Assembly: GCA_039924845.1 (NCBI GenBank)
Contig: JBDTAC010000054.1
Span: 41,308 to 105,307, forward strand
Direction of reading: 5' to 3'
Origin: Bacteroidia bacterium
GTDB lineage: Bacteria; Bacteroidota; Bacteroidia; DATLTG01
Length of the DNA: 64,000 nucleotides
Shown here: one piece after another, positions 48,604 to 61,478 of the stretch
Position numbering within the stretch: the stretch's first letter is position 1
Layout: each line of letters begins with the position of its first letter
The notes under the pieces: model-generated
Database searches by the model: none
The model's input: only the letters and a program-made list of their open reading frames with translations
What the model was told of the DNA's origin: nothing
Program-made: the position numbers and the translations under genes

Positions 48604-51315
48604 ATGAAAATGAAGATTGGAATTATTTTTGGAGGCTTTTCAAAAGAGCGTGAAATTTCTTTTGCAGGTGGCAGAACGGTTTACGACAATCTGAATAAAT
48701 CCTTATTTGAGCCGATTCCTATTTTTATTGACAGTTTTGGAAATTTTATTTTGCTCGATTGGCAATATGTTTACAAAGGCAGCATTCGCGATTTTTATCC
48801 GCCCGCCGAATTAATTCCAAAAAAAGAAGGCGGTTTTCAAATTTATGCCGAAAGTTTAGGCAATTTGAATTCGCAACAGCAAGAAGAATTGATTTTAAAA
48901 ATTGGAAAAAAAATTCTGATAGACGAATTAAAAAATATTTTCGATTTTGCTTTTTTGTGTTTGCACGGACCTTACGGAGAAGATGGGAAAATTCAAGGTT
49001 TGTTCGAATCGCTTGGCATTCCGTATTCTGGATCTGGCATACTTCCTTCTGCCATTGGCATTGATAAAGCAATCCAAAAAAAGCTGATGAAAAATGCCGG
49101 ATTTCCTTCTCCAAAATTCGGAATTATTAAAAAAGAAGAGTGGCTAAAAACGCTCGACAAAAAATATTTTTTCGAAAAATTAAAAAAAGAAATTGGTGAC
49201 AATATCGTTGTGAAATCTGTTTCACAAGGTTCTTCTATCGGCATTTCTGTTTTACAAAAATCTAATTTTGATGATTTTATAAAAGCCGTAAATAAAAGTT
49301 TTTTCATCACAGATATTTCTATGTCTGAATGGAGAAAAATGGACGATGCACAAAAAAATGTTTTTGTGCGCACACTTACAGATATTCGCGAAGGCATTGG
49401 AATTCCTGTGAGAATAGCAAATTCATCTTCAAAAATTTCGGACATTATTTATCATCCGCAAGATTTAATTTTTCATCTCAATAAAATTTCTGCTACCGAA
49501 AAAAATATTTTGCTGGAGTCTTTGGACGGCGAACATTTATCGCTCATCGAAGAATTTATTTCTGGAAAAGAATTTTCCTGCATCGTTTTACAAAATGAAG
49601 ATGGAAATGCAGTTGCATTGCCGCCTACAGAAATAATAAAAGGTGGAGAATTGTTCGATTATCGTTCGAAATATTTGCCCGGTTTATCTCGAAAAATTAC
49701 GCCCATTAATTTACCCGATTCGCAAATTCAGGAAATTCGCAAAGCTTGTGAACATCTTTTTACCGAATTTAATTTTGATGTGTATGCGCGAATTGATGGA
49801 TTTATAAATGAAAAAGGCGTTATTTATTTGAATGATCCGAATACGACTTCGGGAATGATGCCATCTTCTTTTTTCTTTCATCAAGCAGCTGAAATTGGAT
49901 TAAATCCTTCTCAATTTTTAACTTTTATTATTCGCACTTCGCTTTCGCAACGGGCATTATCAACAAAAAACAGTTTAGTAATTACAAAATTACTAAGGCA
50001 TTTAGACGAAGAAATAAAACATCAAAAAAATGCTTCTACAGAAAAAATAAAAGTCGCAGTTATTTTAGGCGGCTATTCTTCGGAGCGACATATTTCGGTG
50101 GAAAGTGGTCGGAATATTTATGAAAAATTAGCGTCATCTTCCAAATACAAACCTGTTCCGATTTTCCTTACGAGGAATGAAAATGAACACATCATGTATC
50201 GCATTCCAGTGAATATTTTGTTGAAAGATAATGCAGATGATATCAAGGAAAAAATTGCACATTATAAAATTCATCCGATTGTAAAAAAAATAATGGAAGA
50301 ATGTGTCGCTATTACTGAAAAATATGGTGAATCTGGAAGTTTAGATCATCCAGAAAAATTAAATTATTCTGATTTACCAAAGTTGGCGGATGTTGTCTTT
50401 ATTGCGCTGCATGGTCGTCCGGGCGAAGATGGAGCGGTGCAAGAAAAACTCGAAAAAATAAATTTGCCTTACAACGGTTCTGATACAAGTAGCTCGCAAA
50501 TTACAATTGATAAATTTCGCACCAATGAAATTTTAAAAGAAAATGGATTTTTAATTGCCGAGCATTTGTTGGTTTCTAAAAATGACTGGAATACTAATAA
50601 AAATGAAGTGCTGGAAAACATCCGTCAAAAAATTAATTTTCCATTCATCGCAAAACCAGTAGATGACGGGTGCAGTTCTGCCGTCAAAAAAATAAAAAAC
50701 GAAAAAGAGTTGGAAGCCTTTGCCACATTGATTTTCAGAAACTCAGAAGAATTTAATAAAAATGCTGCCGAAACGCTTCATATAAAAGTAAAAGAAGAAT
50801 TCCCTCAAAAAAATATTTTTTTGATTGAAGAATTAATCTCGAAAAAAGATGCTCCTCATTTTTTAGAAATTACTGGCGGAATGCTCACCAAATATGATAG
50901 AAATGGAAATGTTGAATATGAAGTTTTTGAAGCATCAGAAGCTTTAAGCGAAGGAGAAGTTTTATCCTTGGAAGAAAAATTTTTGGCGGGACAAGGTCAA
51001 AACATAACACCTGCAAGGTATTCTGTGAATTATGAAGATCGAAAAAAAATTTCTGAGAAGGTAAAAAACACACTTGGTGCTGCGGCAAAACTATTGCACA
51101 TCAATGGTTATACGCGCATTGATGCCTTTGTTCGAATTTACAATCCTGACAAAGTTGAAGTTATTTTTATAGAAGTGAATTCATTGCCGGGCATGACTCC
51201 CGCTACGTGTATTTTTCATCAAGCGGCAATTAATAATTACAAGCCGTATGATTTTATTGATAAAATAATTGATTTTGCATTCGCGAAAAAAAAGAAAGAA
51301 TTACAAACTAATTAA
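48604..51315 (+). CDS. ddl: Tandem-duplicated D-alanine--D-alanine ligase-like protein (two Ddl/ATP-grasp modules in one 903-aa polypeptide)
   Basis: Module 1 starts MKIGIIFGGFSKEREISFAGGRTVYDNL and module 2 restarts KIKVAVILGGYSSERHISVESGRNIYEKL. Both have the Ddl N-terminal pattern (hGxxxGGxSxEhxhSxxSG) followed by ATP-grasp regions. Module 2 ends with NSLPGMTP, as in Ddl. Confidence 0.75.
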   Translation: MKMKIGIIFGGFSKEREISFAGGRTVYDNLNKSLFEPIPIFIDSFGNFILLDWQYVYKGSIRDFYPPAELIPKKEGGFQIYAESLGNLNSQQQEELILKIGKKILIDELKNIFDFAFLCLHGPYGEDGKIQGLFESLGIPYSGSGILPSAIGIDKAIQKKLMKNAGFPSPKFGIIKKEEWLKTLDKKYFFEKLKKEIGDNIVVKSVSQGSSIGISVLQKSNFDDFIKAVNKSFFITDISMSEWRKMDDAQKNVFVRTLTDIREGIGIPVRIANSSSKISDIIYHPQDLIFHLNKISATEKNILLESLDGEHLSLIEEFISGKEFSCIVLQNEDGNAVALPPTEIIKGGELFDYRSKYLPGLSRKITPINLPDSQIQEIRKACEHLFTEFNFDVYARIDGFINEKGVIYLNDPNTTSGMMPSSFFFHQAAEIGLNPSQFLTFIIRTSLSQRALSTKNSLVITKLLRHLDEEIKHQKNASTEKIKVAVILGGYSSERHISVESGRNIYEKLASSSKYKPVPIFLTRNENEHIMYRIPVNILLKDNADDIKEKIAHYKIHPIVKKIMEECVAITEKYGESGSLDHPEKLNYSDLPKLADVVFIALHGRPGEDGAVQEKLEKINLPYNGSDTSSSQITIDKFRTNEILKENGFLIAEHLLVSKNDWNTNKNEVLENIRQKINFPFIAKPVDDGCSSAVKKIKNEKELEAFATLIFRNSEEFNKNAAETLHIKVKEEFPQKNIFLIEELISKKDAPHFLEITGGMLTKYDRNGNVEYEVFEASEALSEGEVLSLEEKFLAGQGQNITPARYSVNYEDRKKISEKVKNTLGAAAKLLHINGYTRIDAFVRIYNPDKVEVIFIEVNSLPGMTPATCIFHQAAINNYKPYDFIDKIIDFAFAKKKKELQTN

Positions 51316-51323
51316 TTTACGAA

Positions 51324-52130
51324 ATGAGTGTTATTGATTTTATAAAAAGTAAAACATTTTTTAAACATCTCGCCTTAGCGATTGTATTGGTAAGTGTTTT
51401 GCTTTGGGGAGTTTTGCAAATATTGGACACGTATACCTTGCACAATCAATCCATTACCGTACCTGATTTTAGCGGATTAAAAACACAAGAAATTGATCAT
51501 TTTATTTCCGATAAAAATCTTCATTATACCGTTATTGATTCCGTGTATGATGCAAAATCTCCGAAAGGAATTGTGATTAAACAAGAACCGGAAAAAGGCA
51601 TTCAAGTTAAAAAAGGAAGAACGATTTATTTATACGTTACGTCGATTTTACCTCCACAAATAGAAATGCCGAAACTCACAGATCAATCGCTGCGCCAAGC
51701 AGCTTCCGTGATTGAAACTTACGGTTTGAAAATGGGAAAAATAAAATACGTTCCCGATGTATGCGCCAATTGTATTTTGAAACAACTCAATAATGGAAAA
51801 GAAATAGAAGCCGGCACAAAAATTCCAAAAGGTTCGGTGATTGATTTAGTTGTGGGAAAAGGATTGGGCGATGAAGAAGTGGCTATTCCAAATCTTATCG
51901 GACTCACCAAACAGCAAGCACTTGCTAAATTGGCAGAAAGTTCCTTAAATGAAGGTGCGCTTGTGTTCGATGCGCCTGTTGATTCTGCGAGAGAAAAAAT
52001 ATACATGCAGAAACCTAGTTATTCCTCTTCTGCAACATTAAATATCGGGAGTCCGATTGATCTTTTTTTTACGAACGACAACAGTAAAATTCCTGTTGTT
52101 AAACAAGACACCATTTCTAACGCTGAATAA
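51324..52130 (+). CDS. PASTA-domain protein
   Basis: N-terminal TM followed by three PASTA-like repeats (VPDFSGL...; MPKLTDQSL...; IPNLIGLTKQQA...). Confidence 0.75.
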   Translation: MSVIDFIKSKTFFKHLALAIVLVSVLLWGVLQILDTYTLHNQSITVPDFSGLKTQEIDHFISDKNLHYTVIDSVYDAKSPKGIVIKQEPEKGIQVKKGRTIYLYVTSILPPQIEMPKLTDQSLRQAASVIETYGLKMGKIKYVPDVCANCILKQLNNGKEIEAGTKIPKGSVIDLVVGKGLGDEEVAIPNLIGLTKQQALAKLAESSLNEGALVFDAPVDSAREKIYMQKPSYSSSATLNIGSPIDLFFTNDNSKIPVVKQDTISNAE

Positions 52131-52132
52131 CC

Positions 52133-54106
52133 ATGATGCAAAAAAATATTTTTTTGAGTGTGTTTTTATTGTTGCTTTTTTCTTTCGCAGGACACGCGCA
52201 ATATGAAATTTTATCACCTTTACACTACAATCCTGCGGTAGCTGCTAAATGGCATGAACAAATGGTGCGTAAACATCATCAAACAAATTACACACAAGGC
52301 TTAACAACATTTAAAGATACGGTTGTACACCCAACATTAGATTCTGTGCCCTTAGTCCCGAACGATACTCTCAGTTTACCTTTTTTAGATGATTTTTCGA
52401 AAGACACCGTTTATCCCGATCAACATTTGTGGATGGATAAGTACGCTTATGTAAATCCAGATTTCCCGATTGCTCCTGTAACCATTGGCGTTGCAACGCT
52501 TGATGGATTAAATGCACAAGGATATCCTTACAATTTTAATTCCGTTTCTGGATCATTTGCTGCCGACCAATTGACTTCGAACCCTATTAATCTTGGCACT
52601 CCGCTTACTGCGGCAGATTCTATTTATTTAAGTTTCTATTATCAAGCACAAGGAAGAGGTATTTCTCCTAAAACAAGCGATTCTATTTTATTGGAATTTA
52701 AGGCACCTAACCAGCCCACCCAGCCTTGGAAAGAAGTGTGGTTTCATTTAGGTTATTCGCCTGCGCCAACGGATAGTGCTTTTCACTTAGTAATGGTTCC
52801 GATAACAGATACCGCTTATTTGCACAATGGTTTTCAATTCCGATTTCAAAATTATGCCTCATTAAATGGCCCGTTTAATCAGTGGAATATTGATTATGTG
52901 TATCTCAATAAATTGAGAAGTCAAACCGATACTGTTTTTAAAGATGTGGCGTTTGTGTATAAGCCGCAATCACTTATTCAGCCTTATGAATCCATGCCTT
53001 GGGAGCAATATACAACTGCCAATATGCGAACATCTGTCAATACTTACATTCGTAATAACGACAATGCGGTGGATAATACTTCGTACTATTACGACATACG
53101 AGATGCCTACAAAAATGTACTTTATACTTATCCGGTAGGGAGTATCAACGTTAATCCATACAGTGCAGGAGGATATGACAATTACGCGCCGCAAGCGCAT
53201 CCGCCGGTTTCCTATCAATTTCCGTTGCTTATAGATAGTACCAATTATCAAGTGGAACATGTTTTAAATACAACGCCGGATTTTGATCGCTCGAACGATA
53301 CAATACGCGCATACCAAGTGTTTAAAAATTATTATGCGTACGACGATGGCTCTGCCGAATTGGCGTATGGCTTAAATCAAGCTTTTGCGAAATTAGCCTA
53401 TCGTTATGTGCTAAATGTAGCAGATACATTACTTGGCGCACAAATTTATTTTGATCCTGCGGGAGTAAATACAGCTATTTATTCTTTCCGCTTGGCTATT
53501 TGGGCAGATGCAGGCGGAATTCCGGCAAGTACACCATTTTATATAGATAGCAGCAATGTGCCAATTTATCAGCCAAACGGCTATTTTATGTTTGATACGT
53601 ATAATTTAAAAAGGGGTGATAGTTCACGTACTTATTTGCATTTGAACGCGGGGACTTATTATATAGGGATGATTCAAGAATTTGCGCAACCATTAAATAT
53701 TGGTTTCGATGAAAATACAGATAGCCACACCAATTTGTATTACAATGTTACTGGTACTTGGCAGCAATCAGGCTTTCAAGGTTCGTTGATGTTTCGCCCT
53801 GTTTTTGGAAATTTTGATACAATACCCGCACTTGGCGTGAAAGAATTATCCATGAACTCTAATTTGATTTCCCTTTTCCCGAATCCCGCAAATACATTTA
53901 TTCACATTAATTGCAGTTCTTCTTTATTGTTGAATACATTAAACATTACTATTTACGATGCTTTCGGAAGAAATGTGTTGAGTAATTCTGCCTTTAAAAT
54001 AAATGAGACATTGGATATTTCTGCGCTCTCAGCAGGAATTTATTTTGTGAAAATACAAGATGAAAAAAATAATTTTTCGGTGAAGAAATTAGTGATTACG
54101 CGATAA
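52133..54106 (+). CDS. Secreted protein with T9SS C-terminal sorting domain (function unknown)
   Basis: Signal peptide MMQKNIFLSVFLLLLFSFAGHAQ. C-terminus LFPNPANTFIHI...GIYFVKIQDEKNNFSVKKLVITR (type A CTD pattern). Confidence 0.7.
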   Translation: MMQKNIFLSVFLLLLFSFAGHAQYEILSPLHYNPAVAAKWHEQMVRKHHQTNYTQGLTTFKDTVVHPTLDSVPLVPNDTLSLPFLDDFSKDTVYPDQHLWMDKYAYVNPDFPIAPVTIGVATLDGLNAQGYPYNFNSVSGSFAADQLTSNPINLGTPLTAADSIYLSFYYQAQGRGISPKTSDSILLEFKAPNQPTQPWKEVWFHLGYSPAPTDSAFHLVMVPITDTAYLHNGFQFRFQNYASLNGPFNQWNIDYVYLNKLRSQTDTVFKDVAFVYKPQSLIQPYESMPWEQYTTANMRTSVNTYIRNNDNAVDNTSYYYDIRDAYKNVLYTYPVGSINVNPYSAGGYDNYAPQAHPPVSYQFPLLIDSTNYQVEHVLNTTPDFDRSNDTIRAYQVFKNYYAYDDGSAELAYGLNQAFAKLAYRYVLNVADTLLGAQIYFDPAGVNTAIYSFRLAIWADAGGIPASTPFYIDSSNVPIYQPNGYFMFDTYNLKRGDSSRTYLHLNAGTYYIGMIQEFAQPLNIGFDENTDSHTNLYYNVTGTWQQSGFQGSLMFRPVFGNFDTIPALGVKELSMNSNLISLFPNPANTFIHINCSSSLLLNTLNITIYDAFGRNVLSNSAFKINETLDISALSAGIYFVKIQDEKNNFSVKKLVITR

Positions 54107-57728: not shown

Positions 57729-60188
57729 ATGAAAAAATTATACGCTACGATCGGATTGTTGTTTTTTGTTTGCCTAATAACGGACGCAACTAATTATACA
57801 AGCAACGGAGGAGATTGGAATACAGCTACTACTTGGACTCCAAATGGTATTCCTGCCAATACGGATAATGTTACCATACTTTCTGGAAATGTAACCTTAG
57901 TGGCTAATGGCAAGGCTCTGAATGTAACTATAAACAGTGGTGCCACGCTAAGTAATAATAACCCTGGTAACGCAGCTAATTCTCTAAATATTTTTGGAGT
58001 TTTTACAAACAATGGGACTTACGCAGGTACAGGGAAAACTGGGCATAAAGGTACTGGGATTATAATAGTTGGGGCTGGGGCGAATACGAACTCTGGAGAT
58101 GTTTGGTTTAATGGCACTTCCCAAACAATTACAGGAACCGTGAATAAAGTAAATGGTGGAAATTTTTGGCTAAACGTTACTACGTATCCTTCCTGTTCAG
58201 TTACAAACCAAGGCCACGTTTCTACTCACAATGGATCCATTAAAGTAGATGGAACAACAGGCCCAGCAGTATGGACAAATGCTGCAGGTTCTTATGTGGG
58301 GTTTCAATTAATAGGATTTACAAACCAAGGCAACTTTACGATAAACACATCTGCTGTTAATGATACTGTGGATTATGAAAATAGTAATTACAATATTTCC
58401 ACCACTAATGGGAATACTTATTATACTTTAATTATCGGAGGGGCAGCAAAAACAGCTTCATCCAACTTAACAATCACTAATTTGAATATAAAATCAGCAG
58501 GTACACTAAATGTTAATGGTAAAAATTTAAATATTGCAGGTAATTGGCTTAACAATGGTACCATCACAAACAATACTGGTACGGTAACTTTTAACGGAAC
58601 TTCTGCGCAAACAATAAGCGGAACAGGAAGCAATCCTTTTAACAATCTGACATTGTCAAACAGTGCTGGATTAACTTTGGCAAGCACCTCTACCTTAACT
58701 GGTACACTTGGTATTACCGCAGGTAATTTTAATGCAGGAAGTTCTTTATTGACATTGATTTCGAATGCTACTGCAACTGCACGTATAGGTACAGTCCCAT
58801 CGGGCAGTTCCCTGTTAGGAAATTATATTATACAGCGTTACATAACTGGAACTAAAACCGACTATCAATGTTTAAGTACTCCCATTAAAAATATGACTTT
58901 AAGTGTTTGGGACAATGATCCAGGCTTTTACATGAGTGGGATTGGAGGAGTACACGGAAATGCTGGAAGTTACCATTCTGTTTATACCATTAATGAACCA
59001 ACAAATGCTTACGTAGCTGTAACAACAACCAGTTACGTTTTATCTCCAGCTTTGGGCTTGTATTTATATTTTGGAAATGGAAGTCCTGGCGGACCTATGG
59101 CATCTTTTGCTTTTGCTTCAAAAGGATTGCCTAATTTTGGCAATATCACGAAAAATATTACATATACAAGTGGGCAAGGAAATGGATTTAATCTTATCGG
59201 AAATCCATATCCATCTCCTATTTTATGGACTAATTTTCATAGCGACAATAGCAGTCTTATCACAGGAAGTTTTCAAATTTATGACGAAGCAACTGGAACA
59301 TGGGTGTCGTCAAATGGTACAACTGTAAGTAATGGAAGCAGTAAGTTAGCCGCAAATCCTAATGTTATTACTATGTGCCAGGGCTTTGAATGCACTCCTT
59401 CTGGAGGTTCCACAACCGTAACTTTTAAAGAAACTGAAAAAACAGCTACAGATATTCCTATCGTAGCTCAACAAGCTCCCAATCCATCAGACTGGATTAG
59501 AATGCAATTGAGCAACAATGTAAATTCTTTTTCTGACGGAACAGTATTACAGTTTACGCAAAACGCATCTGCAAACTTTAATGTAAATGAAGACGTATTG
59601 TTCAGATCCAGTTTTGAATCAACAGCTCCTGAATTATATACACTGAGCAGCGATAATCAACATCTTACCGTAAACCAAATGCCCGACCTAAGTGATGAAA
59701 TGACTATTCCATTAATTGCTAAAGGAGGCTTGGCTGCTACCTATACCATTTCTTTCGAAGGTATTAATAATTTGCAGAAATACGATTGTGTTACCTTAGA
59801 AGATCTTACTAACAATAAAACAATTTCTCTTGGAAATACAAATTCTTACTCTTTTCAAGTAAGTGATACATCTAAAATCAATCAATTCCTCATCCATTTT
59901 AAACATTCGGCAGGTAATTGCGCCTTGTCTATTGCAAACAATCCGTATTTGGAAAACAACGTGAATGTAACTTCTTCGGCAAATGGAGTATTTACTAATT
60001 TCAATTTCGCTCAACCTCAAACTGCCGTAATTTCTGTTTACAATGTACTTGGACAAAAAGTGATTTCTGACGAAACGGTAGAAGTATCTCAAAACAATGT
60101 GAGATTAAATATTGTTCCGAGCAATAATATTTACCTTGTGGTTATTCATACTAATAACCAAGTCATCACAAAGAAAATTTATTACTAA
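57729..60188 (+). CDS. Large secreted adhesin-like protein with T9SS C-terminal sorting domain
   Basis: Signal peptide and a T/N/G-rich beta-helix-like body. C-terminus ISVYNVLGQKVISDETVEVSQNNVRLNIVPSNNIYLVVIHTNNQVITKKIYY. Confidence 0.75.
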   Translation: MKKLYATIGLLFFVCLITDATNYTSNGGDWNTATTWTPNGIPANTDNVTILSGNVTLVANGKALNVTINSGATLSNNNPGNAANSLNIFGVFTNNGTYAGTGKTGHKGTGIIIVGAGANTNSGDVWFNGTSQTITGTVNKVNGGNFWLNVTTYPSCSVTNQGHVSTHNGSIKVDGTTGPAVWTNAAGSYVGFQLIGFTNQGNFTINTSAVNDTVDYENSNYNISTTNGNTYYTLIIGGAAKTASSNLTITNLNIKSAGTLNVNGKNLNIAGNWLNNGTITNNTGTVTFNGTSAQTISGTGSNPFNNLTLSNSAGLTLASTSTLTGTLGITAGNFNAGSSLLTLISNATATARIGTVPSGSSLLGNYIIQRYITGTKTDYQCLSTPIKNMTLSVWDNDPGFYMSGIGGVHGNAGSYHSVYTINEPTNAYVAVTTTSYVLSPALGLYLYFGNGSPGGPMASFAFASKGLPNFGNITKNITYTSGQGNGFNLIGNPYPSPILWTNFHSDNSSLITGSFQIYDEATGTWVSSNGTTVSNGSSKLAANPNVITMCQGFECTPSGGSTTVTFKETEKTATDIPIVAQQAPNPSDWIRMQLSNNVNSFSDGTVLQFTQNASANFNVNEDVLFRSSFESTAPELYTLSSDNQHLTVNQMPDLSDEMTIPLIAKGGLAATYTISFEGINNLQKYDCVTLEDLTNNKTISLGNTNSYSFQVSDTSKINQFLIHFKHSAGNCALSIANNPYLENNVNVTSSANGVFTNFNFAQPQTAVISVYNVLGQKVISDETVEVSQNNVRLNIVPSNNIYLVVIHTNNQVITKKIYY

Positions 60189-60228
60189 GAAGATAATTTG
60201 TATATTTTTGCGAAAACAAAATAATCGT

Positions 60229-60462
60229 ATGAAAAAAAATTGTAGAGCATTTATTTTATTTTTCCTATTCACATTAAGTCCGTTTTTTATAGACGTCGTT
60301 TTTTCACAACCTCCTCCTCCGGGTGGACCAGGAAACCCTCCATGTTGGCCTCCCCCATGCAGTGTGCCTTTAAATGGAGGAATTGTTTTGTTGATAGCAC
60401 TTGGTGTTATTTACGGTGGAAAAAAAATTTATGACAACTCTAAAAAGACATCTGAATTATAA
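60229..60462 (+). CDS. 77-aa secreted Pro/Cys-rich miniprotein with a sorting-signal-like C-terminus (candidate XrtF-associated substrate)
   Basis: MKKNCRAFILFFLFTLSPFFIDVVFSQ (signal peptide) / PPPPGGPGNPPCWPPPCS / VPLNGG / IVLLIALGVIYG (TM) / GKK.... A TAnnTTTG-like box, tatttttg, lies at 60203-60210. The track ORF was trimmed to the ATG at 60229. Confidence 0.5.
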   Translation: MKKNCRAFILFFLFTLSPFFIDVVFSQPPPPGGPGNPPCWPPPCSVPLNGGIVLLIALGVIYGGKKIYDNSKKTSEL

Positions 60463-60480
60463 TTCAGATGTCTTTTCATT
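60441..60480 (+). terminator. Hairpin terminator/attenuator overlapping the miniprotein stop codon
   Basis: Perfect inverted repeat aagacatctgaatta / taattcagatgtctt followed by ttcatttt, located 5 bp upstream of xrtF. Confidence 0.55.
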
Positions 60481-60484
60481 TTAA

Positions 60485-60997
60485 ATGAATACTTCTTTTC
60501 TTAAAAATCCTGTCGTTTTATTTTTACTGAAAGCGTTCGCACTATACATTTTGTGGTATGTGCTGTATGATTTTTGGTTACATCCAAAAGAAACCTGCGA
60601 TTTATTTGTCATTGACAAAACATTGGCGATGAGTAAAAAAATACTCGAATTAATGCACTACAAACTTTTTACAGGCGCAGATCGGCTCATCGGAATCGAT
60701 GGTACCAACGGACTTTGGATGGGCGATAATTGCAACGGCATCGAATTATTCGCACTTTTTTCCGGATTTATAATTGCATATCCTGGAGCATGGTTCAAAA
60801 AAATAATTTTTATACCACTCGGAATTTTATCCATTCAAATTCTCAATTCCCTACGTGTTGTGGCTTTGGCGATGATTGAAATTAAATCTATTAAATTAAC
60901 AGAATTCAATCACAGCTACACTTTTACGATTTTAATGTACGGTTACATCTTTTTTTTATGGATGCTTTGGGCAAATAAATTCTCGAAACAAAAATAA
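60485..60997 (+). CDS. xrtF: Exosortase family protein XrtF
   Basis: 170-aa polytopic protein with the exosortase active-site-type motifs DNCNGIELF (Cys) and LNSLRVVAL (NxxRV). The size matches the short XrtF class. Confidence 0.7.
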   Translation: MNTSFLKNPVVLFLLKAFALYILWYVLYDFWLHPKETCDLFVIDKTLAMSKKILELMHYKLFTGADRLIGIDGTNGLWMGDNCNGIELFALFSGFIIAYPGAWFKKIIFIPLGILSIQILNSLRVVALAMIEIKSIKLTEFNHSYTFTILMYGYIFFLWMLWANKFSKQK

Positions 60998-61001
60998 TTT
61001 C

Positions 61002-61478
61002 ATGAAAAAATTATCGCTTCGAAAAATTATTTTTTTGACAGTCATTATTGCACTTATTCTTTTTTTCGGTTATCTCCGCGACTTTATTTTTATTCACACC
61101 AACCGCGAAATCGGGATTCAATATTATAAAATGGCAAATGATGATTTACCAACGTCATTAAGGTGGATGAAGAATTTTAATTATCTTCAATTAATTAAAT
61201 TTAAGTGGCTATTTACATTTCTTTTTTCGGGTATTTTTTTATTGATTACGTTGCTCGTTACAAAACTATTATTCGATAAAAAAAACTTTTTGAAAATCAG
61301 TTTGTACGCTTACATCGCAGTATTTTCGATCGCTTTGGTATTTACCGGATGTGGATATTTAATTCCAATTTTCCGTGAAAATGGCTATGAATTATCGCGC
61401 TATTTTATGCACATCGCACAATCTCCTTTGATAATGATGGTGCTGATTCCCGCTTTTAAATTAAGTGAAAAGAAATAG
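61002..61478 (+). CDS. Exosortase F system-associated membrane protein
   Basis: 158 aa, 4 TM, immediately downstream of xrtF (4-bp gap), the arrangement described for XrtF loci. Confidence 0.55.
   Translation: MKKLSLRKIIFLTVIIALILFFGYLRDFIFIHTNREIGIQYYKMANDDLPTSLRWMKNFNYLQLIKFKWLFTFLFSGIFLLITLLVTKLLFDKKNFLKISLYAYIAVFSIALVFTGCGYLIPIFRENGYELSRYFMHIAQSPLIMMVLIPAFKLSEKK

Follow-up and report, generated by a model that had tools for sequence, protein, structure and literature searches.

The window analysed here, a 64-kb stretch of contig JBDTAC010000054.1 from a Bacteroidia bacterium, contains a compact protein-sorting module composed of a 77-residue miniprotein with a PID-CTERM sorting signal, a small exosortase and a membrane protein partner. 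By the scores of curated family models, the enzyme is exosortase X (XrtX) and not XrtF, and the locus is an ordinary copy of an already described Bacteroidota sorting module, the pairing itself being no discovery. The module and its expression signals comprise the following features:

60203..60210, + strand: -7 box of the Bacteroidota sigma-A type, TATTTTTG, 26 nt 5' of the miniprotein ATG, with positional conservation
60229..60462, + strand: gene of the PID-CTERM miniprotein, 77 amino acids, matching NF046080 and PF28310, with XrtX-linked homologs
60340..60357, + strand: CWPPPC Cys pair of the miniprotein, 1-2 residues before the PID-type motif
60443..60476, + strand: intrinsic-terminator-like hairpin with a 15-bp perfect stem and a 4-nt loop, spanning the miniprotein stop codon
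60485..60997, + strand: XrtX gene (xrtX), 170 amino acids, matching NF046081, with candidate catalytic residues Cys83, Arg124 and His143
61002..61478, + strand: gene of the XrtX-associated membrane protein with four transmembrane (4-TM) segments, 158 amino acids, with NF046082 as best family

Families were assigned by comparing hidden Markov model (HMM) scores with the curated cutoffs of NCBIfam release 20, which in bits are 170 for NF046081 (exosortase X), 26 for NF046080 (PID-CTERM sorting domain), 75 for NF046082 (XrtX partner), 90 for TIGR04128 (XrtF), 35 for TIGR04127 (XrtF-associated), 160 for NF046083 (exosortase Y), 23 for TIGR04178 (exosortase/archaeosortase core signature) and 108 for TIGR01007 (Wzc-like kinase). 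The initial annotation had recognized the exosortase motifs DNCNGIELF (Cys83) and NSLRVV (Arg124) in the enzyme open reading frame (ORF) and a 4-TM partner gene 4 nt further on, and all of these elements are present; the four hydrophobic segments of the partner were called by Kyte-Doolittle hydropathy. The same annotation had described the pair as an XrtF / XrtF-associated arrangement, a name that the scores contradict. The enzyme reached 182.2 bits with the exosortase X model (E = 7e-54; model positions 2-165 of 168) and carries the core signature at 49.7 bits, while the XrtF model was second best with 71.4 bits, below its cutoff, and the exosortase Y model gave 57 bits. The XrtF-associated model also missed its cutoff with the partner (12.3 bits, E = 0.14).

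Relatives of the enzyme were sampled from seven genome loci, all in metagenome-assembled genomes of Bacteroidia/Bacteroidota, and from 80 metagenome loci, which with the window makes 88 loci. XrtX was the best model for all seven genome homologs and for all 75 metagenome homologs scored, and for the latter the best E-value was 4e-27 with XrtF versus 1e-60 with XrtX. Cys83, Arg124 and His143 were invariant in two alignments, of 75 and 53 homologs. An AlphaFold2 model of XrtX showed a helical membrane protein (pLDDT, the predicted local distance difference test score, of 91). A PDB sequence search with XrtX returned no match at E <= 10, and a Foldseek comparison of the model with the PDB returned nothing below E = 3.5.

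The miniprotein and its linkage to xrtX

Directly upstream of the exosortase gene, as the initial annotation had noted, lies a 77-residue ORF which ends 22 nt before the xrtX start. Its product is built from a signal peptide, a Pro/Gly-rich stretch, CWPPPC, VPLNGG, a transmembrane helix and a GGKK basic tail, and its sequence is laid out as MKKNCRAFILFFLFTLSPFFIDVVFS, QPPPPGGPGNPPCWPPPCS, VPLNGG, IVLLIALGVIYGG and KKIYDNSKKTSEL. Kyte-Doolittle hydropathy gave two hydrophobic segments, at residues 5-26 (N-terminal, signal-peptide-like; the signal peptide was judged by inspection) and 43-67 (C-terminal helix). The suggestion that the tail is an exosortase-type tripartite sorting signal was borne out: besides the N-terminal signal peptide, the protein contains a short motif (VPLNGG), a helix (IVLLIALGVIYGG) and a basic cluster (KKIYDNSKK), and it scored 35.1 bits with the PID-CTERM sorting domain model, which aligned over positions 1-25 of 25 to residues 46-70 of 77. 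The precomputed Pfam match was PF28310 'PID_CTERM'. In the family search PID-CTERM was the sole family at E <= 1, and none of the other named CTERM signals, including PEP-CTERM, was found in the miniprotein. Looked up by exact sequence, the miniprotein of the window had no record, and the window XrtX had one match, on a 13.9-kb Logan contig.

Miniproteins were sought in the 88 loci by running a 23-residue tail HMM over all six-frame ORFs, with misses checked by eye. Eight loci were without the relevant upstream DNA, which left 80 informative loci; all the relatives sampled from the enzyme side were XrtX, and the linkage counts therefore refer to XrtX loci. In 77 of these 80 loci exactly one same-strand miniprotein of the same build was found. 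The miniprotein ends no more than 240 bp (mostly 7-96 bp) before xrtX in 63 loci. In the other 14 it lies about 2.5 kb 5' of xrtX, and only a Wzc-like tyrosine-kinase gene stands between them, on the same strand (L004, L005, L027, L028, L032, L033, L036, L041, L043, L046, L057, L066, L084 and L085). Miniprotein, xrtX and partner was the common order among the 88 loci, with partner homologs 3' of xrtX in 57 of them.

The linkage was also sampled in reverse, by looking up nine miniproteins, two of whose loci ended before the next downstream gene. An exosortase was found directly 3' of the miniprotein in five of the seven usable loci; the remaining two belong to a single abundant, Flavobacteriales-like lineage whose miniprotein (L089, 5001..5237) has index entries in 258 blocks of the collection. 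This miniprotein lies 3' of a homolog of the surface protein described below and has a terminator hairpin of its own, with glyA next and neither xrtX nor partner within 5 kb.

Conservation of the miniprotein spans loci whose XrtX proteins are only 45-88% identical. Within it, conservation is highest in the helix, with its pattern of Gly residues, and in the YGGKK tail. The PLN of the window motif VPLNGG is a minority variant, found in 5 of 182 miniproteins, while PID occurs in 119 of the 182. In one clade (L002, L003, L009, L010, L014 and others) the Pro-rich stub is replaced by a (GM)n repeat, such as VGMGMGMGMG, before PCGGPFPPC. The mature region is of low complexity and free to vary, and the tail is conserved.

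Two profiles were used to see how far the signal extends. The first, a 42-residue alignment that included the Cys pair, had 774 matches at E <= 1, of which the best 120 were all 42-81 residues long. The second was restricted to 32 tail positions without cysteines and was scored against 1.84 billion representative proteins, giving 1779 matches at E <= 1e-3; among the best 150 of the 1779, 146 were proteins of 36-117 residues that matched at their C-terminus. The remaining four (P0275, P0281, P0327 and P0373; 351-416 residues) were rejected as PID-CTERM proteins, having the helix-plus-KK half only and no PID motif. Each contains three copies of segments such as AGAAYGGKKLYD that look like the helix and basic part of PID-CTERM; these four are probably repeat proteins with no relation to the signal. 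No second ORF with a PID-CTERM tail was found in the 64-kb window, and no long ORF with such a tail in any flanking locus. The sorting signal is thus nearly confined to miniproteins. Its restriction and its linkage to the enzyme gene fit the 'dedicated system' case of Haft (bioRxiv 10.1101/2023.06.07.544157), in which a sorting enzyme has one target encoded by a consecutive gene.

The Cys pair was present in 67/67 miniproteins adjoining the closest XrtX relatives (L001-L087), 1-2 residues before the motif, usually as CWPPPC and also as PCGGPFPPC or CIPPPC. Adding the matches of the profile that itself contains the pair raised the count to 182/182, a biased set; in the unbiased tail-only search just 22 of 140 miniproteins had the pair, and its universality to the signal was rejected. 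Most Cys-less miniproteins have an acidic Pro-rich stub, such as DPDVPIDGG. One of them (L098) lies beside a bona fide XrtX (178 bits), and others lie beside XrtX-like or XrtY-like enzymes scoring below their cutoffs. The low frequency in the unbiased set, together with the Cys-less miniprotein beside XrtX, indicates that the pair is a trait of a subfamily and not a property of the signal. The two cysteines may close a disulfide loop or be a site of modification.

Promoter box and hairpin

The -7 consensus of Bacteroidota sigma-A promoters is TAnnTTTG (PMC9723704, PMC6847099). Of 65 distinct loci, 46 have a box of this form starting 12-60 nt 5' of the miniprotein ATG (36 occurrences at 21-30 nt), as against none of the 65 control windows placed inside coding DNA. 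Across the window the box is not enriched (112 found versus 107 expected), so only its positional conservation counts as evidence. A sigma-70 promoter scan of the window was uninformative (23 found versus 18 expected).

The 15-bp perfect hairpin which the initial annotation had described over the miniprotein stop codon, just before the exosortase gene, is present and folds far better than expected for its composition (z = -5.2; 0/200 shuffles as good). It has four G-C pairs in the stem, an A-run before it and the T-run CATTTTAAAT after it, and thus combines a stable stem-loop, a following T-run and a position at the 3' end of a gene, as in intrinsic terminators. A stem of 11-15 bp starting 13-19 nt before the stop codon was found in 21 of 55 distinct loci of the adjacent type. 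Its 5' arm is formed by the last five or six codons, encoding KKTSEL in the clade of the window and KKNPA in the L002 clade, and its 3' arm is non-coding. Three stem sequences occupy the same position, namely GACATCTGAATT, GAATCCCGC and GCCGAAT, the third of which encodes KKAE and belongs to a lineage without adjacent xrtX. The structure is therefore kept while the sequence changes, which argues for function. The earlier idea of an abundantly expressed substrate gene with attenuated read-through into the enzyme gains support from these positionally conserved hairpins with differing stems and from the conserved -7 box.

The xrtX ATG lies 8 nt beyond the end of the hairpin, and no further + strand TAnnTTTG box was found between 60211 and 61560, suggesting that xrtX and the partner gene are plausibly transcribed through read-through past the hairpin. 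Since translation initiation in Flavobacterium is sensitive to local mRNA structure, the hairpin may also damp translation of xrtX.

Surface protein, Wzc-like kinase and polysaccharide genes

Two larger genes precede the module:

57729..60188, + strand: RemA-like surface protein of the type IX secretion system (T9SS), 819 amino acids, with the T9SS type A C-terminal domain (CTD) of TIGR04183
55163..57535, - strand: Wzc-like polysaccharide co-polymerase / tyrosine autokinase with a Tyr-rich tail, scoring 168.8 bits with TIGR01007

The first corresponds to the large T9SS adhesin-like gene which had been noted upstream of the module, and the TIGR04183 CTD and a RemA-like C-terminal part agree with that description. 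A profile of 12 of its homologs matched the gliding adhesin RemA (PDB 8gl6_D, E = 1e-13) over its C-terminal ~400 residues, and a G8 domain was found in 8 of the 12. Among the loci with enough upstream DNA, 36 of 64 have an ORF with a T9SS CTD directly 5' of the miniprotein; these upstream proteins are of about 800-1000 residues (L002, L010, L028, L069, L089, L094, L096, L097 and others), and in 32 loci with homologs of the T9SS protein the gap to the miniprotein is mostly 17-67 bp. The pairing persists with Cys-less miniproteins (L094, L096, L097) and where no xrtX is adjacent (L089, L090, L092). This gene order suggests that an exosortase target is linked to type IX secretion cargo.

The Wzc-like gene of the window is divergently oriented and lies 5' of the T9SS gene; homologs of this kinase were found in 37 of the 88 loci. 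Past the kinase gene come genes for two sets of Wzm/Wzt-type ABC exporters, a sulfotransferase and an FkbM methyltransferase, a setting of polysaccharide export and biosynthesis beside which exosortases are typically found. The nuo operon lies 3' of the module.

Further upstream, an ORF of 903 codons (48604..51315) has two D-Ala-D-Ala ligase (Ddl) N-terminal matches and several C-terminal ones, an arrangement suggestive of two Ddl units fused in tandem. Next come genes for a protein with a PASTA domain (51324..52130) and for a second T9SS protein with a CTD (52133..54106).

Proposed mechanism and relation to known systems

We consider it likely that XrtX, the 4-TM partner and the PID-CTERM miniprotein form a dedicated exosortase system of the Bacteroidota, with one enzyme for one target. 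From the family identities, the gene linkage, the restriction of the signal to miniproteins, the invariant residues, the promoter box and the hairpin, we infer the following course for expression ratios, export, cleavage, transfer and acceptor. The miniprotein would be transcribed from its own -7 box promoter, and most transcripts would stop at the hairpin over its stop codon, with a minority reading into xrtX and the partner gene; the substrate would thereby be made in excess of the enzyme. The Sec pathway would export the 77-residue precursor and the signal peptide would be removed after VFS. The C-terminal helix would then retain the precursor in the inner membrane, with GGKK in the cytoplasm and the PID-type motif VPLNGG at the outer face, where XrtX, as a polytopic Cys/Arg/His enzyme, could cut at or near this motif. 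By analogy with archaeosortase A, XrtX could pass the Pro-rich, Cys-pair peptide of about 20 residues to an acceptor, probably a lipid or the polysaccharide of the neighbouring locus. A more specific form of this proposal, in which the sole cargo of XrtX is this Pro/Gly-rich stub of about 20 residues (with a CWPPPC loop at its end in this subfamily), freed from the anchor helix and joined to lipid or polysaccharide as a polymer primer or anchor or as a docking site for the RemA-like adhesin, is put forward as a tentative suggestion only. If the stub did dock the T9SS adhesin, it would couple exosortase to type IX secretion.

Several observations weigh against the dedicated system. Sorted 'surface proteins' do not usually have a mature part as short as the ~20 residues predicted here, and no miniprotein was found near xrtX in three XrtX loci (L007, L078, L086). 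In one abundant lineage (L089, L090, L092) the miniprotein occurs with no xrtX within 5 kb. The locus counts include many near-duplicates from metagenomes and so overstate the number of independent observations. The strong hairpin is limited to the clades closest to the window, with marine clades having 6-bp stems or none. In the L002 clade xrtX is not directly followed by a partner gene, and the window partner, although NF046082 was its only significant family, scored 51.7 bits with this model (E = 8e-14) where the cutoff is 75. All ten partner homologs tested (L010, L012, L028, L037, L044, L051, L058, L063, L069 and L081) likewise matched this model best and missed its cutoff (41.8-73.7 bits), and the curated model therefore appears to be narrower than its family. 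By this threshold the window partner is a homolog in the expected position and not a member. A full-text literature search found no paper mentioning PID-CTERM or XrtX, and hence no published experiment.

Another reading gives the miniprotein a different primary partner, namely the upstream RemA-like T9SS protein, for which it could be a tether or assembly factor, with XrtX only maturing it. The T9SS CTD gene lies directly 5' of the miniprotein in more than half of the usable loci, including those with Cys-less miniproteins, and the two genes stay together in the lineage without adjacent xrtX. The upstream gene is absent from 28 of the 64 loci, however, compared with linkage to XrtX in 77 of 80 (a count sampled from the enzyme), and adjacency alone is no proof of interaction. 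We regard this reading as rather unlikely, and it is compatible with a dedicated exosortase system and not exclusive of it.

It is less probable still that the miniprotein stays uncleaved, as an intact small bitopic subunit or regulator of XrtX, the partner or the Wzc machinery, with the tail acting as a conserved docking helix. Such a role would agree with the helix and its YGGKK tail being the most conserved part, with an extracytoplasmic mature portion of only about 20 low-complexity residues, and with the 14 loci where the miniprotein adjoins the Wzc-like gene and not xrtX; its cleavage, moreover, is so far only predicted. Nevertheless, a motif, a helix and a basic tail make up the standard tripartite signal which related enzymes cut, and the invariant Cys/Arg/His set of XrtX implies that the enzyme has a substrate, for which neither the window nor the fetched flanks offered another candidate with the tail.

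The initial annotation had proposed the miniprotein as a candidate for the missing XrtF substrate or anchor peptide. It can indeed be viewed as the cognate target of the adjacent exosortase, given its match to NF046080 and its presence in 77 of 80 loci, but its family had already been curated. Since the enzyme is XrtX, the gap left by the XrtF substrate is not filled by this miniprotein. The XrtF label is understandable: TIGR04128 is the second-best model for the enzyme, and JGI/IMG names many proteins 50-68% identical to it (P0127, P0135, P0144 and others) 'exosortase family protein XrtF'. Some partner homologs also match TIGR04127 weakly (E = 6e-5 to 6e-3), indicating that the XrtX and XrtF systems are related, and papers on XrtF still call its targets unknown. 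Against this, the enzyme falls short of the XrtF cutoff (71.4 versus 90) and passes that of XrtX (182.2 versus 170), the partner is far from the XrtF-associated cutoff (12.3 versus 35), none of the 7 + 75 homologs matched XrtF better than XrtX, and none of the exosortases found adjoining a PID-CTERM miniprotein reached the XrtF cutoff, all of which makes an XrtF/XrtF-associated pair very improbable. Because the loci that JGI labels XrtF are exosortase X by the current NCBIfam models, public XrtF labels in Bacteroidota metagenomes are unreliable.

That the 77-codon ORF arose by chance, as a short ORF of the kind common in AT-rich DNA, and that the hairpin terminates the upstream T9SS gene can be given practically no weight, as the ORF, a 'hypothetical protein' in the source record, is conserved at protein level across loci whose XrtX proteins are 45-88% identical, passes a curated HMM cutoff, shares its tail with 1779 representatives and has a conserved promoter box in the gap that separates it from the T9SS stop codon; cross-locus conservation and both profile searches refute it.

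The result thus corrects a mislabel, from XrtF to XrtX, and draws attention to a system that is unstudied at the bench and whose target is a single miniprotein of about 75 residues with a mature part of about 20. For tests of where an exosortase cuts, what the acceptor is and how the reaction proceeds, XrtX and its miniprotein are probably the simplest natural pair of enzyme and substrate available. If the stub is indeed the sole cargo of XrtX, the pair would also offer a minimal natural substrate on which to work out exosortase chemistry and, through homology, a route to the target of XrtF. As XrtX is the closest relative of XrtF, the search logic can be transferred to that orphan enzyme, looking for a small signal-peptide ORF with a motif-helix-basic tail and its own promoter and terminator near the enzyme, a Wzc gene or T9SS cargo.

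Among known systems, the XrtX/PID-CTERM system is the closest match. The trio of miniprotein, enzyme and partner is already curated as the consecutive NCBIfam families NF046080-82, with the miniprotein also in Pfam as PF28310, and NCBI names the homologs 'exosortase X' and 'PID-CTERM protein-sorting domain-containing protein'. The window has the same gene order, its enzyme and miniprotein pass the cutoffs and its lineage is Bacteroidia; it differs in its minority motif VPLNGG and in a partner below the NF046082 cutoff. PID-CTERM miniproteins also occur 5' of enzymes resembling exosortase Y (NF046083; 125 bits in L094), suggesting that the signal serves a small clade of related exosortases.

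The XrtF system (TIGR04128/TIGR04127; Fjoh_1448/Fjoh_1449 in Flavobacterium johnsoniae) likewise consists of a small Bacteroidota exosortase followed by a small multi-pass partner, and F. johnsoniae requires both genes to form biofilms and to colonise surfaces (PMC10936215). The window misses both XrtF cutoffs, and its enzyme has an adjacent dedicated target, whereas that of XrtF is unknown. With XrtA/PEP-CTERM (EpsH) the window shares a homologous enzyme core and a C-terminal signal in three parts, and both systems adjoin a polysaccharide locus that encodes a Wzc-type kinase. PEP-CTERM systems have many, often large targets per genome and the motif P-E-P, in contrast to the single target of about 75 residues and the motif P-[IL]-[DN]-G-G found here. 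Archaeosortase A (ArtA) of Haloferax volcanii, which acts on PGF-CTERM, belongs to a homologous enzyme family; it removes the C-terminal helix of its substrates and a lipid anchor is attached, and its residues Cys173, Arg214 and Arg253 were critical by mutagenesis (PMC9263693). ArtA differs in being archaeal, in its large S-layer glycoprotein substrates and in its archaeal lipid acceptor. Among experimental models for the chemistry that we propose for XrtX by analogy, ArtA is the best.

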